From positions 1,604,533 to 1,624,426 of the forward strand of contig CP070825.1 of assembly GCA_020344415.1 (NCBI GenBank): 19,894 nucleotides of DNA, in the 5' to 3' direction. The first letter of the stretch is position 1. Each line of letters starts with the position of its first letter. Of the stretch, positions 13,740 to 18,035 are shown piece by piece. The notes under the pieces were generated by a model. It had not been told where the DNA came from and did no database searches. It saw nothing but the letters and a program-made list of their open reading frames with translations. This stretch comes from Candidatus Aminicenantes bacterium. Lineage in GTDB: Bacteria; Acidobacteriota; Aminicenantia; Aminicenantales; Aminicenantaceae. A program made the translations under genes and the position numbers.

Positions 13740-16094
13740 ATGGTTTCAGAAAAAGTCAACCAAATCGGCGAATCACCCACCCTTAAGGTAACGGCCAAAG
13801 CCAAGGCTATGAAGGCTGAGGGAATAGATATCGTTGACCTCAGCGTTGGAGAGCCAGATTTTCCAACTCCGGATAACATTAAATCAGCAGGCATAAAAGC
13901 CATCCAGGAAAACTTCACCAAGTACACACAAAATGATGGAATCCCTACCCTTAAAGAGGCAGTCATCCACAGGCTGAAGGAAGATATAGGGCTTGCTTAT
14001 GAAAAGGAAGAAATCATCCTTTCCACTGGCGCCAAGAGCTCCCTCTATCATCTCATCCAGGCTCTGATCAATGAGAGCGAGGAGGTCATCATCCCCTCTC
14101 CCTATTGGGTGACCTACCCTCATGCTGTATCATTGGCAAAAGGAAAATCTGTCATCATCCCAACAAAGGAGGAGAATGGATTTATCTTAAGCGGTGACCA
14201 GCTAAAGTCTGCCATCTCTCCATCCACCAGAGCCTTAATCCTGAACAATCCCTCTAATCCTACGGGAGCAGCTTACCAGAAGCATGAGCAGGAAGCCTTG
14301 GCAGACGTCGTCCTTGAAGAGAATATCTACGTCATTGCTGACGAAATATATGAAAAACTTGTCTATGATGACTTCAAGTTTGTGAGCTTTGCATCACTTG
14401 GAGAGGAAATAAAAAAGAAAACCATCATCATTAACGGCGTCTCAAAAGCCTATTCAATGACTGGGTGGCGAATAGGCTTCGCCGCTGGTCCTGCAGACAT
14501 CATCAATGGCATGGCCAAAATCCAGAGCCACACCACATCCAATCCCTGCTCAATCTCACAAATAGCAAGCCGGGAAGCTTTAGGGGGACCCCAGCATGAA
14601 ATCTCCAGAATGGCATCTGAATTTCAGAGGCGCAGGAATTATGTCCTGATGCGGCTTCAGACCATCCCTAATGTTTCCTGTTTCAAACCGCAGGGAGCTT
14701 TCTATCTCTTTCCCAATTTTTCTCATTACTATGATAAAGAATTCAACAATGTCCAGATTAGAAACTCTTACGGCCTGGCATATTATCTTCTGAAAGAAGC
14801 AAACGTGGCAATTGTTCCCGGAGATGCCTTTGGGGCTGACGATCATATCCGTATATCCTATGCCACTTCTATGGAAAACCTAGAAAAAGGCATAGATAGA
14901 ATCGCGGAGGCTCTCACCCGCCTTAAAACGCCCAAAAAGGTCGTCCGCCTCGCTTTAAATAACACTATAACCCGAGAAAAAAAGCGAGTTCCTGTTGATT
15001 CCACGATCGACGTTAAGATGAGGGATGCTCTTGTAGCTGAGATGGAAAACCATCTCAGCTATGAAAATTACTTCGAATGGAATGCGAACATCAACGGCGT
15101 CATTGTTCAGCTGCGGACGAATGTCTCCCACCTCAACGATTTTTGGATCGAGAATTGGTATCCGGCTCAACTGGAAGCGGCACTGGAACCCCACGGCATC
15201 ATATATGCTGTTGATGGCATAGCAGGTCGAGAATCCCGTGCTTTCTACAACCCAGAAACAAAAACAGGAATTCTCGTCAACACAGACAATTATACTCCTT
15301 TGCGCAGCCTTGCTCTCGGTCTTGTCATGAACGTCTCAGAAAGATTATTTAACGTTCACGCAATCCGTGGGATGTCAGCAGACATTGATTGGAATGGACT
15401 GATCCTCGTCGGACCTAAAGGGACAAAGAAAACCGAGCTGTTCTTCGGCTTGTTCTCAGATGATAGATTCCGTCTCCACTCCAATGATCTCGTTTTTGTC
15501 CGTTTTTCAGGAGGTATAGCCCTGGCTGATTCCTCGGAGAGGAAGCTTTTCATGCCAACGAATACAGTAGAATCTTATCCTCGCTTAGCCTCCCTCTTTG
15601 ATAACAGCAAGTGTGAAAACGTTATTACGCGCAAAGATGACTGCCAGGACGCAGAGTGCCTCCGCCTGGATGACTGCCGCCTCGACCGGGGGTCACCTTA
15701 CTGCTATAAAGCTTCAAAAGACGCCCATGCCATTCTCGACCCATACTGGATTGAGGGAACAGCAATGCATATCAAACGCACTGCACTTCGTTGGATGTTT
15801 ATTCTCCGTTACGACAACGTCTCGCCGCCAGTAGTGGACGTCGAGGTGGAAGATGCCCTGCGCATGCTTGAATCCGGAGAAAGCCTGGGCGTTGCAAGAG
15901 ACCTTACTCCTTCTCAAAGAGAACCCTATTACAACCCCCACCTTCTCACAACAACCCCAGAGCAGATGGAACTTCAGAGGAGTTTTTTCGAGCGCTTCCT
16001 TGAGAACATTTCCTGTTATCTGTTCAACAGCGGAGTCGCCTCTTCTGAGGAAATCAAACGAATTGTGACAGGGGAGAGCAAAACCGAAGAATGA
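13740..16094 (+). CDS. fusion protein: class-I aspartate/aromatic aminotransferase (aa 1-395) + degenerate PEP-carboxykinase(ATP)-family domain (aa ~420-784)
   Basis: The N-terminal domain has GEPDFPTP, NNPSNPTGAAY and the PLP-lysine block SKAYSMTGWRIGF (K236). The C-terminal domain aligns colinearly with PckA and with the next gene: TDNY to GTWYGG; VHAIRG to MHCSA; LILVGPKGTKKTELFFGL to FFGLSGTGKTTLS (kinase-1a); RLHSNDL to RLIGDDEH; SGG to FEGGCYAKT; CENVITRKDD to [12 protein letters not shown]. The Mn-binding KK of GEMKKG is absent and the P-loop second Gly is replaced by Lys. The 784-aa frame is continuous with no internal stop. Confidence 0.7.
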   Translation: MVSEKVNQIGESPTLKVTAKAKAMKAEGIDIVDLSVGEPDFPTPDNIKSAGIKAIQENFTKYTQNDGIPTLKEAVIHRLKEDIGLAYEKEEIILSTGAKSSLYHLIQALINESEEVIIPSPYWVTYPHAVSLAKGKSVIIPTKEENGFILSGDQLKSAISPSTRALILNNPSNPTGAAYQKHEQEALADVVLEENIYVIADEIYEKLVYDDFKFVSFASLGEEIKKKTIIINGVSKAYSMTGWRIGFAAGPADIINGMAKIQSHTTSNPCSISQIASREALGGPQHEISRMASEFQRRRNYVLMRLQTIPNVSCFKPQGAFYLFPNFSHYYDKEFNNVQIRNSYGLAYYLLKEANVAIVPGDAFGADDHIRISYATSMENLEKGIDRIAEALTRLKTPKKVVRLALNNTITREKKRVPVDSTIDVKMRDALVAEMENHLSYENYFEWNANINGVIVQLRTNVSHLNDFWIENWYPAQLEAALEPHGIIYAVDGIAGRESRAFYNPETKTGILVNTDNYTPLRSLALGLVMNVSERLFNVHAIRGMSADIDWNGLILVGPKGTKKTELFFGLFSDDRFRLHSNDLVFVRFSGGIALADSSERKLFMPTNTVESYPRLASLFDNSKCENVITRKDDCQDAECLRLDDCRLDRGSPYCYKASKDAHAILDPYWIEGTAMHIKRTALRWMFILRYDNVSPPVVDVEVEDALRMLESGESLGVARDLTPSQREPYYNPHLLTTTPEQMELQRSFFERFLENISCYLFNSGVASSEEIKRIVTGESKTEE

Positions 16095-16121
16095 TAATGC
16101 TATGTAATGTTAATATTCATG

Positions 16122-16190: not shown

Positions 16191-16202
16191 CATATAAGTA
16201 CA

Positions 16203-18035
16203 ATGAATGAAAAAAGCATCTATAAAGTAGAAGCCTATAAAAAATTTGCGGGGGAACTTCCACGAGTCCTCAAGGGGCCAAATATCCGAACCGTGGACCT
16301 CAAATGGCTTGAGCCAAGAGCGAAAGCTACGGGGACCAAAACTAAATACGGCTCCTATGGCTGGCGAGCAGCTATTTCTAGCCGGATTGCACCCAAGACT
16401 GTCTACTTAGGGAGCGAAGATATCCGACTCCCCAAGCCTACGGTTGAACAACAATCCTTGATCGCCAGGGCTCCAGAAGAGCTGGAAAAGGTGCTCCACC
16501 TCCTCCGAACTCTCCCCTTATACCACATCCGCCGTCAGATGGGAGAGAATGATTCGTACAATCCACTCTGTAACCTTTATTTTTCCGAAGCGGACCTCAT
16601 CAACTACCGCCTGGGATATATGTGGGGAAACACATTATTCAAGCCCAGCAAGCGACCGGGTCCTGAGTTCACCATGATTCACATCCCCGAAGAGCACCCC
16701 TTAAGGCAGCAGGTTCTTGCTCTTCCTGAAGACAACATCAATATTGCCCTGGGAACGGATTACATGGGAGAAGATAAAAAGGGCTTCCTCCGTCAGTCCA
16801 TGTGGACTGCGGATAAACTGGGTATGTTAGGGCTTCACTCCGGCACAAAACTCGTCACAGTCAGGGATGCTGATAACAAGCTCAAAACCTACGGAGTCTT
16901 CCTTTTTGGTCTCACTGCAACTGGCAAATCTACCTGGTCCTGTCATCAGCTCGGTCTTGACCATAAAAATGGCGAAAAAACAGAAGTGACTCAAGATGAC
17001 ATCGTTTTCCTCAAGACCGATGGATCTGCTCTAGGCACAGAAGGTGGCTTTTTTGTTAAAACAGATGTCGAGAGAGAAAACCAAGAAGCAATGTACAATG
17101 CCTTGATCGACAAATCTGCCCTTTATGAAAATGTCATGATCAGATCCAACGGAGACGTTGACTTCCTGGATGAAACCCTTACCGCAAATGGAAGAGCTGT
17201 TATACAGCGCGATAAACTCAAAGTGAGAATAAACGGAAAAATGGTCGGGATTGCATCAAAATCCATCAACCTTCCCCCTCTTGAAGAATTGGATGGATTG
17301 GTCTTTGCCTTTATAACCCGCAGAAACACCATCATGAGTTTTGCCCAGGAGCTCACTCCTGAGCAGGCAATCCTAGCCTATCTCTGGGGAGAAAGCACCC
17401 ACAGTTATGCCAGCCAGCCCCTTAAGGCCGGTGAGTCTGTGCGTATCGTGGGAACCGATCCATTCATTGTCGGATCAAGAGCCAAAAAAGTAAACCGCTT
17501 CTATGAAATTATCATGACCCTAGTCAGCAACTTTCCTGGGAAACTTAAGTTCATGCAGTACAATACAGGCGGACTGGGTGAGATTATCGAAACTCAAGAA
17601 GAAAACGGTCAACAGAAAAAAAGAATGGTGCGCAAGATCACCCGGGTTCCCATAAACTTGATGGCTCAAATCCAGAGGGGTGATCTTCGCGGAACAAATC
17701 ATTACGAAAAGGGAAGGCTCGGGACAAAAGAAGTAAAGAGCTGCGAAGGGCGAAACCTTGATGAATACGATATCCGCAAATTCTACTCAGAGGAGCAGAT
17801 CCAGCATTATATTAAAGATCTCGTAGAAGGAAGGCGCAACTTTACTGAGGAGATTGCCTCAGAAGGACTCCGACAGGAAATCCTGTATGCTGCAGAGCGC
17901 TCCTTCCGCATCGATAAAAGCGGCGAAAAAGAAAAGCCAGAAGTCCCAGAAAGTCCTGCTGAAGAAGAGAGGCCGTTTTATTACTGGGAATCTAAATCGA
18001 GACCCCGCCGAGGAGGATTCTGGAGATCAAAATAA
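16203..18035 (+). CDS. phosphoenolpyruvate carboxykinase (ATP) family protein, divergent (long N-terminus, charged/aromatic C-terminal tail)
   Basis: Colinear with E. coli PckA motifs: GTDYMGEDKKGF (GGTWYGGEMKKGMF), LHSG (MHCS His ligand), VFLFGLTATGKSTWS (kinase-1a FFGLSGTGKTTLS), DDIVF (GDDEHGW Asp ligands), GTEGGFFVKT (FEGGCYAKT), MYNALIDKSALYENVMIRSNGDVDF ([24 protein letters not shown]), NGRAVIQ (ENTRVSY Arg333), LTPEQAILAYLWGEST (LTADQTQYHFLSGFT), MQYNTGGLG (YLVNTGWNG). 610 aa versus about 540 for PckA. The N-terminal substrate-binding region is poorly conserved. Confidence 0.8.
   Translation: MNEKSIYKVEAYKKFAGELPRVLKGPNIRTVDLKWLEPRAKATGTKTKYGSYGWRAAISSRIAPKTVYLGSEDIRLPKPTVEQQSLIARAPEELEKVLHLLRTLPLYHIRRQMGENDSYNPLCNLYFSEADLINYRLGYMWGNTLFKPSKRPGPEFTMIHIPEEHPLRQQVLALPEDNINIALGTDYMGEDKKGFLRQSMWTADKLGMLGLHSGTKLVTVRDADNKLKTYGVFLFGLTATGKSTWSCHQLGLDHKNGEKTEVTQDDIVFLKTDGSALGTEGGFFVKTDVERENQEAMYNALIDKSALYENVMIRSNGDVDFLDETLTANGRAVIQRDKLKVRINGKMVGIASKSINLPPLEELDGLVFAFITRRNTIMSFAQELTPEQAILAYLWGESTHSYASQPLKAGESVRIVGTDPFIVGSRAKKVNRFYEIIMTLVSNFPGKLKFMQYNTGGLGEIIETQEENGQQKKRMVRKITRVPINLMAQIQRGDLRGTNHYEKGRLGTKEVKSCEGRNLDEYDIRKFYSEEQIQHYIKDLVEGRRNFTEEIASEGLRQEILYAAERSFRIDKSGEKEKPEVPESPAEEERPFYYWESKSRPRRGGFWRSK

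Follow-up and report, generated by a model that had tools for sequence, protein, structure and literature searches.

The stretch of DNA analysed here (the window: 19,894 nucleotides, positions 1,604,533 to 1,624,426 of contig CP070825.1, assembly GCA_020344415.1, from a Candidatus Aminicenantes bacterium) encodes on its forward strand an open reading frame (ORF) of 784 amino acids that joins an aminotransferase to a domain with the fold of ATP-type phosphoenolpyruvate carboxykinase (PEPCK) in which most of the catalytic residues are replaced (“pseudo-PEPCK domain”). After a gap of 108 bp it is followed by ORF12, which encodes a PEPCK of 610 amino acids. An earlier note on this DNA, made from the letters and their translations, had placed both ORFs at the coordinates that we find and had described them as an aspartate aminotransferase (AspAT) fused to a degenerate PEPCK, next to an intact one. 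The genes and domains lie as follows (window positions).

13740..16094, plus strand: fusion ORF, 784 amino acids, class Ib aspartate aminotransferase (best-supported assignment) plus pseudo-PEPCK domain
13740..14924, plus strand: aminotransferase domain, residues 1-395 (PF00155, residues 30-388, E 2.2e-75)
14925..14954, plus strand: probable flexible linker, residues 396-405, KTPKKVVRLA (from model confidence)
14955..16091, plus strand: pseudo-PEPCK domain, residues ~406-784
16203..18035, plus strand: ORF12, 610 amino acids, predicted divergent PEPCK with its catalytic set intact (PF01293, E 2.4e-25; alignment to 1aq2)

The Pfam match confirms that the fusion begins with a class I aminotransferase, and its pyridoxal phosphate (PLP) lysine is present. 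The motif SKAYSMTGWRIGF (residues 235-247, nt 14442-14480), in which the lysine is K236, fits the SKxxxMTGWRxG pattern of the PLP-Lys in class I, subgroup Ib aminotransferases, and the Lys of STGAKSS (nt 14022-14042) lines up with the Lys in the GAK motif of rhizobial AatB (6f35). The nearest solved relatives are subgroup Ib AspATs, namely 6f35 (E 5.7e-106), 8wkj, 1j32, 6f77 and Arabidopsis 5wmh, some of which double as prephenate aminotransferases; the best NCBIfam model, NF004769, scored 428 bits against a cut-off of 617 bits. Judged by these relatives, “aspartate aminotransferase” is the best-supported assignment for the N-terminal domain, not a proven one.

For the C-terminal domain, colinearity with ATP-PEPCK and with ORF12 had been claimed, and scans with family models had been expected to bear on it. 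Such scans recover PF00155 in the N-terminal part of the fusion and PF01293 in ORF12, but the C-terminal domain matched no Pfam or NCBIfam model even at E ≤ 1. A phmmer search of the domain against the PDB returned nothing, and BLASTP against ORF12 was not significant (E 0.97), so pairwise sequence comparison by itself is no proof of colinearity; identity to PEPCKs is only ~15%. An AlphaFold2 model of the domain, built from an alignment of 37 homologs, has a predicted local distance difference test score (pLDDT) of 89.6 and a predicted template-modelling score (pTM) of 0.88; the first 10 residues average a pLDDT of 51, and values exceed 87 from residue 11 onward. When this model was used in a Foldseek search, the top 35 matches were all ATP-type PEPCK chains (E 1e-17 to 5e-15, TM 0.65-0.73). 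Profile-profile comparison with hhalign aligned the domain family with the ORF12 family over the P-loop lobe (E 3.3e-5), and stand-alone relatives of the domain (see below) aligned with the ORF12 family over 296 columns (probability 97%, E 1e-11). The colinearity is real and well past chance.

It runs through the Y/KK, His, P-loop, DD, K288, ENV, R333 and NTG blocks of ATP-PEPCK (PckA; PF01293; 1aq2, 1ii2). The window domain differs from these enzymes in being ~150 amino acids shorter, in lacking the N-terminal segment that bears the R65-type Arg, and in having a Cys-rich insertion and invariant motifs of its own, and it does not match PF01293; it has the PEPCK fold without the PEPCK family profile. 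About 110 N-terminal PEPCK residues, which in ORF12 include an R65-like motif, fall outside the homology alignment between the domain family and the ORF12 family, and the window domain has ~50 residues before the aligned core. Two other families come near. The window domain has no match to PF07475 (HPr kinase/phosphorylase, HprK), its profile matches to HprK chains in the PDB are weak (E 0.017-0.05), and the HprK C-terminal domain and HprK-related kinases (PF07475, TIGR04352/04355, ScmC) cover only about one third of it, whereas its N-terminal lobe and overall architecture are PEPCK-like. NDUEG2, an accessory subunit of Euglena respiratory complex I (8j9h_E2), is less similar to the window domain than true PEPCKs are, and it belongs to a eukaryotic respiratory complex with no aminotransferase or PEPCK partner.

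In E. coli PckA, the residues that we take to bind Mn2+ are K213, H232 and D269, those of the P-loop K254/T255, and those for the substrate R65, Y207, K288 and R333; mutant entries among the PckA matches from Foldseek show that these catalytic positions have been targeted experimentally. The comparison below was built from combined alignments (ORF12 to 1aq2, the stand-alone relatives and the window domain). One mixed alignment, of a cis fusion of the domain to PEPCK (see below), ORF12 and domain homologs, put PEPCKs onto the pseudo-domain; it was unusable for modelling and served as a residue map.

PckA Y207: ORF12 Y187; stand-alone relatives Y; window domain Y
PckA K212: ORF12 K192; stand-alone relatives K; window domain R
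PckA K213: ORF12 K193; stand-alone relatives S; window domain S
PckA H232: ORF12 H212; stand-alone relatives H; window domain R
PckA GLSGTGKT: ORF12 GLTATGKS; stand-alone relatives APTGTGKS; window domain GPKGTKKT
PckA D268-D269: ORF12 D265-D266; stand-alone relatives DD; window domain ND
PckA K288: ORF12 K286; stand-alone relatives R; window domain P
PckA R333: ORF12 R331; stand-alone relatives R; window domain H
PckA NTG: ORF12 NTG; stand-alone relatives NTG; window domain NSG

In the window domain, these positions and the family signature motifs lie at:

15075-15122, plus strand: family signature motif EWNANINGVIVQLRTN
15183-15197, plus strand: family signature motif LEPHG
15279..15320, plus strand: NTDNYTPLRSLALG, counterpart of PckA GTWYGGEMKKG, with the Tyr kept, Arg for K212 and Ser for K213
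15357..15374, plus strand: HAIRGM, with Arg at the position of the Mn-ligand His (PckA H232, ORF12 H212)
15411..15434, plus strand: degenerate Walker A GPKGTKKT, residues 558-565, with the position-6 Gly changed to Lys; aligned to ORF12 GLTATGKST
15477..15491, plus strand: HSNDL, with N-D for PckA D268/D269; HSND (residues 580-583) aligned to ORF12 TQDD
15606-15623, plus strand: family signature motif SKCENV
within 15720-15749, plus strand: family signature motif LDPYW

Thus, the alignments bear out the three lesions that the earlier note had listed, namely the loss of the Mn-binding Lys-Lys (the position reads R-S), the P-loop mutated to GPKGTKKT and the change of one Asp of the DD pair to Asn. 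They add three more, at H232 (Arg), K288 (Pro) and R333 (His). The upstream copy is a degenerate PEPCK-fold domain that does not carry the Mn2+ ligands, P-loop and substrate Arg/Lys of a PEPCK, and, going by these residues, it should not be classed with the PEPCK enzymes.

ORF12 presents the opposite picture. The catalytic set attributed to it is intact with respect to GEDKKG, the His, the DD pair and the Arg equivalent to R333 (R331), but its P-loop is GLTATGKST rather than the GTGKST given before. Its motifs lie at:

16377-16400, plus strand: SSRIAPKT, resembling the R65 motif (identified by eye)
16752-16784, plus strand: GTDYMGEDKKG
within 16830-16844, plus strand: H212
16908-16934, plus strand: GLTATGKST
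16989-17006, plus strand: TQDDIV
within 17049-17066, plus strand: K286
within 17181-17201, plus strand: R331

ORF12 scored 89.6 bits against PF01293, above the cut-off of 26.5, and stayed below the NCBIfam cut-offs (NF006821, 285 against 369 bits; TIGR00224 pckA, 35 against 590 bits), which makes it a member of a divergent PEPCK subfamily. A database protein identical to ORF12 (P0121, from a Candidatus Aminicenantes metagenome-assembled genome, MAG) is named PEPCK (ATP) at NCBI, and several ORF12 relatives also match PEPCK_GTP weakly. From profile and residues, ORF12 is predicted to be a bona fide though divergent PEPCK.

A long ORF of this kind could arise by an assembly error or frameshift that merges two genes. 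When one genome for each GTDB species was scanned, at least 555 loci proved to encode a relative of the domain, and the best 80 of these come from Aminicenantes wherever a lineage is named, many carrying only a generic MAG label. Aminotransferase and domain are contiguous and in a single frame in 79 of these 80 independent species-level assemblies, with products of ~780-808 amino acids. Full-length fusions of 781-817 amino acids occur in other lineages, such as a Latescibacteria MAG (817 amino acids) and an unplaced lineage (781 amino acids, with the canonical P-loop GGPGSGKT), and fusions are also present in MAGs labelled Calditrichota and Zixibacteria. In support of an artefact, many database entries are fragments, and in three related loci (L001-L003) the two parts are called as separate or overlapping genes. 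The frame in these split calls breaks inside the aminotransferase domain, however (in L001 and L003 at ~residues 320-339), and the junction is in frame; judging by the contig naming, indel errors probably account for them. An artefact is effectively refuted, and the fusion is a real, conserved architecture whose parts are not, as the earlier note had allowed, always separate genes in homologs. Database pieces of ~600 and ~236 amino acids had raised the suspicion of selenocysteine or a programmed frameshift in the Cys-rich region. This was ruled out: the pieces are incomplete gene calls or stem from frameshifted assemblies, with junk tails, set against one intact ORF in 79 of the 80 loci.

The loss of catalytic residues is not accompanied by decay. 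In an alignment of sequences 39-74% identical to the window domain (A3), ~20 columns are invariant, including (domain numbering) W52, N53, G58, L63, T65, N66, H69, P80, P89, H90, Y108, G166, S228, E231, N232, D272, P273, W275 and N368. Some 45 more are at least 90% conserved, among them the Arg that replaces Lys and the Arg that replaces His. In the former cleft, R127, R148, G166 and E205-R206-K207 are invariant or nearly so, and such constraint points to a maintained surface or ligand site. The domain thus combines lost catalytic residues with purifying selection, as expected of a pseudoenzyme partner of an active paralog.

An additional feature of the domain is the insertion that has no PEPCK counterpart:

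15642..15704, plus strand: Cys-rich insertion CQDAEC...C...C, residues 635-655, where the model pLDDT dips to 68-76

Its cysteines are spaced C-x4-C-x5-C-x8-C, with an extra Cys in SKCENV. Among aminotransferase-fused members in A3, C240, C245, C251 and C260 are nearly invariant, and in Zixibacteria and the archaeal cis fusions the insertion is missing or different. It is possibly a metal-binding knuckle.

A profile search of 1.8 billion representative sequences placed the domain in ~370 clusters at 50% identity. Besides the aminotransferase fusions, these hold stand-alone relatives of 320-410 amino acids and longer forms of 450-570 amino acids. These forms keep APTGTGKST, the His, HSDDW and NSRA, and by these motifs look like active kinases or carboxykinase-like enzymes. 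Two stand-alone members match NF006821, the model of the PEPCK subfamily to which ORF12 belongs (E 1e-11 to 1e-14). One stand-alone relative (P0320, 754 amino acids) carries an intein directly after its GTGKS P-loop. Inteins typically sit at functionally important sites, and the insertion suggests that this also holds for the P-loop of the stand-alone branch.

A further architecture links the domain directly to PEPCK. In P0256 (899 amino acids), the domain, its P-loop obliterated, makes up residues 1-330, and a PEPCK 40% identical to ORF12 (E 1e-123) makes up residues 369-878. A search with P0256 found at least 96 clusters (at 90% identity) of proteins of 880-910 amino acids in which the degenerate domain stands N-terminal to an ORF12-type PEPCK. 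They come from Hod-, Hel-, Loki-, Frey- and Promethearchaeota, Bathyarchaeia, Altiarchaeota, Hydrothermarchaeales and a few bacterial MAGs, and their source records name them merely “phosphoenolpyruvate carboxykinase”. The cis-fused domains share the signature of the window domain (WNANING..QLRTN, RSLAL, LRG, HSND, SERKFY, LDPWWI). Cis-fused and aminotransferase-fused domains both have Arg in place of K212 and of H232, where the stand-alone relatives have K and H; judged from the alignments, these are shared derived states of the two fused types. Among the cis fusions, some P-loops are intact, such as GSGKST in Bathyarchaeia, and at the other extreme some are lost (SSENDIAT, GSGINT, TDGGRTT). 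In the family as a whole, this position runs from canonical GTGKS/GAGKT to motifs without the Lys. Since the P-loop varies in this way, the conserved function of this domain type would be association with an ORF12-type PEPCK and not P-loop nucleotide binding.

These data bear on the origin of the domain, which the earlier note had ascribed to a tandem duplication. As a recent local event this is not supported: the identity to PEPCKs is too low, the family is old and has stand-alone members that retain the motifs, and in archaea the domain occurs without the aminotransferase. An ancient duplication of an ORF12-type PEPCK is plausible, because stand-alone relatives match NF006821 and because the order of pseudo-domain and then PEPCK is alike in the window and in the archaeal fusions. 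The AspAT fusion is one among several fates of the domain.

The same data also bear on whether the domain might itself catalyse some altered reaction, say as an oxaloacetate decarboxylase that needs no metal or as a kinase with a non-canonical P-loop, so that the fusion would perform two consecutive steps. The invariant residues are mostly polar, GTGK[ST], His, DD and Arg persist in the stand-alone relatives and in part of the fused members, and the intein marks the P-loop of one relative. Yet neither the window protein nor its Aminicenantes counterparts retain any of the equivalents of K213, H232, D268, K288 and R333, the P-loop varies freely to complete loss in cis-fused members while the rest of the signature is invariant, and the N-terminal PEPCK residues with the R65-type Arg lie outside the alignment. 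We regard this explanation as quite improbable.

Flanks of up to 7-8 kb, shorter in some cases, were fetched for each locus, and 76 of the 80 Aminicenantes loci could be scored for PEPCK (4 undetermined). In 63 of the 76, the next gene after the fusion encodes an ORF12-type PEPCK. In loci outside Aminicenantes, the fusion likewise has a flotillin gene beside it and a gene for a PEPCK of 613-634 amino acids within 5 kb, in other orders and orientations:

L003: flotillin, fusion, PEPCK, nucleoside-diphosphate kinase (NDK)
L090 (Latescibacteria MAG) and L092: flotillin and fusion, preceded by a divergently transcribed PEPCK
L093 (Calditrichota MAG): flotillin and fusion, with NDK and PEPCK ~4.6 kb away

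In all, the module of flotillin, fusion and long PEPCK recurs in rearranged form in two unplaced contigs and in MAGs that bear the labels Aminicenantes, Latescibacteria and Calditrichota. The PEPCKs encoded in trans have a further mark in common, a basic-aromatic C-terminus, which in ORF12 is:

17985..18032, plus strand: conserved basic-aromatic tail WESKSRPRRGGFWRSK, residues 595-610, after a variable acidic/Pro-rich linker

The tails of the long PEPCKs of L003, L090, L092 and L093, together with that of ORF12, include …SRPRRGGFWRSK, …RPRRPGVWRWR, …RLPRDRGWRWR and …GRPPRPMGGRFR. This tail is absent from the ~545-amino-acid PEPCK-only relatives and from P0256, the sole cis fusion whose C-terminus was read directly, and the alignment consensus of the other cis fusions has none. 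It could serve for docking or for targeting to the membrane.

We lean, by a modest degree of belief, towards the pseudo-PEPCK domain being an adaptor or regulatory module that binds an ORF12-type PEPCK and gives an AspAT-PEPCK assembly around oxaloacetate. Besides the homology, the residue replacements, the conserved fusion and the constraint on the former cleft, four observations argue for it: (i) in the clusters described above, an ORF12-type PEPCK carries this degenerate domain type on its own chain, a “Rosetta stone” for association; (ii) fusion and long PEPCK stay clustered in differing orders and orientations; (iii) only the trans-type PEPCKs bear the conserved tail; and (iv) cis-fused and aminotransferase-fused domains share the derived Arg/Arg states. 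The pseudo-PEPCK domain would dock onto the intact PEPCK encoded next door, and the AspAT fused to it would thereby be brought to the PEPCK, much as the archaeal domain is in the same chain as its PEPCK. Oxaloacetate, which one enzyme makes and the other consumes, might then be handed over, or both activities might be co-regulated. Because AspAT and PEPCK share oxaloacetate, such an assembly would couple aspartate, oxaloacetate and phosphoenolpyruvate in either direction. Physical binding in trans is what we infer here, as is any channeling or regulation.

Several points weigh against this reading. The fusion is kept with no PEPCK gene in the fetched flanks in 13 of the 76 scorable Aminicenantes loci and in a Zixibacteria genome (L002), so that the docking or regulatory partnership proposed in the earlier note gains from the cis fusions and the conserved clustering but does not find its partner at every locus. 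Some aminotransferase-fused members keep a canonical P-loop and the R333-equivalent Arg, and the family is maybe not uniformly inactive. In the AlphaFold2 model of the cis fusion P0256 (69 full-length homologs; pLDDT 85.9, pTM 0.66), each domain is modelled with confidence but the interdomain arrangement is not. To our knowledge, substrate channeling has rarely been proven even in fused enzymes.

The 13 loci (L019, L027, L031, L034, L042, L052, L054, L056, L058, L062, L063, L067 and L076) have an SIS gene directly after the fusion in most cases, and the P-loop variant GPPGT[RK]KT mostly replaces GPKGTKKT, with the canonical GPPGTGKT in L058. The shared variant suggests one subclade that lacks the PEPCK gene at this locus.

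Persistence of a highly conserved fusion where no PEPCK gene adjoins would suit another role for the domain, that of a metabolite or nucleotide sensor which binds oxaloacetate, phosphoenolpyruvate or ATP in the remodelled cleft and acts allosterically on the fused aminotransferase, with no need for contact with PEPCK. Conservation is strong among the residues that line the former active site, and replacement of the metal ligands by Arg/Lys might allow anions to be bound without metal. A sensor for the aminotransferase does not account for the 96 clusters in which the domain type is fused to PEPCK and not to an aminotransferase, nor for the conserved clustering with the long PEPCK across several lineages, and we consider it unlikely.

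A flotillin gene comes immediately before the fusion in the window:

12307..13713, plus strand: SPFH/flotillin gene (Pfam Band_7, E 3.5e-26, and Flot), ending 26 bp before the fusion

Wherever an Aminicenantes locus (L004-L083) extends far enough upstream, a flotillin gene precedes the fusion, and the pairing is kept where the PEPCK gene has moved, so flotillin may be a third member of the module. In a speculative extension, which we put forward with considerable doubt, flotillin, the AspAT::pseudo-PEPCK fusion and the tail-bearing PEPCK would form an assembly at a membrane microdomain for the hand-over of oxaloacetate, with the dead paralog as adaptor and the tail as docking or membrane-targeting element; the archaeal ~900-amino-acid version would make the arrangement ancient.

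The remaining gene order in the window is ComEC, a BNR/sortilin protein, LpxK, a lipid A acyltransferase, RNase PH, an epimerase and a GT2 glycosyltransferase ahead of flotillin, fusion and ORF12, and past ORF12, both on the opposite strand, an SIS-domain gene and an acyltransferase. An NDK gene lies beside the fusion, a PEPCK or a stand-alone relative in four loci (L002, 9587-10015; L003, 11149-11562; L087, 4325-4825; L093, 8527-8940), a recurrence that hints at a nucleotide-related link. Two window ORFs, 2397-2975 (plus strand, 192 amino acids) and 2999-3865 (minus strand, 288 amino acids), gave only weak, chance-level Pfam matches, none above threshold. Rfam and tRNA scans gave no match, exact-sequence look-ups of the window proteins turned up no record, and a promoter and terminator scan near these genes was uninformative.

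PEPCK and AspAT stand at the junction of phosphoenolpyruvate, oxaloacetate and aspartate, where gluconeogenesis, anaplerosis and amino-acid metabolism part ways, and oxaloacetate is scarce and unstable. At this node, an unannotated pseudo-PEPCK domain occurs in at least 555 species genomes and ~370 clusters, attached to PEPCK (mostly in archaea) or to an AspAT beside a PEPCK (in bacteria). If the adaptor reading holds, the domain would add a new case of a pseudoenzyme that organises central metabolism, and a concrete, testable one of enzyme tethering; if the module reading holds, it would be an ancient, hitherto unrecognised regulatory architecture at the phosphoenolpyruvate-oxaloacetate node. 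Many annotations as “~900-aa PEPCK” or “aminotransferase” in uncultured lineages, Asgard archaea included, cover half the protein, and the pseudo-PEPCK domain merits a family model of its own.

A full-text literature search of incomplete coverage returned no description of an AspAT-PEPCK-like fusion, a pseudo-PEPCK domain or the ~900-amino-acid archaeal architecture, and this amounts to no more than absence of evidence. The domain family, both of its architectures and the module of flotillin, AspAT-pseudoPEPCK and PEPCK appear to be undescribed. The proposed logic resembles that of the mitochondrial and B. subtilis metabolons centred on malate dehydrogenase (PMC8100219), in which makers and consumers of labile oxaloacetate are brought together. 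Those assemblies differ in being non-covalent and without a pseudoenzyme adaptor, and the review that describes them mentions no AspAT-PEPCK fusion or adaptor (PMC8100219). The components, and the principle of a pseudoenzyme partner, are familiar. Pseudoenzymes partner their active relatives in the AdoMetDC and DHS prozymes of trypanosomatids, in HisZ with HisG and in pseudokinase-kinase pairs. As in these pairs, a degenerate paralog under purifying selection is tied to the active enzyme, physically or genetically: archaea have it fused in cis, and in the window it lies in trans, in the adjacent gene. The present case differs in that the pseudo-paralog is also fused to AspAT, an enzyme that shares a metabolite with the active paralog.

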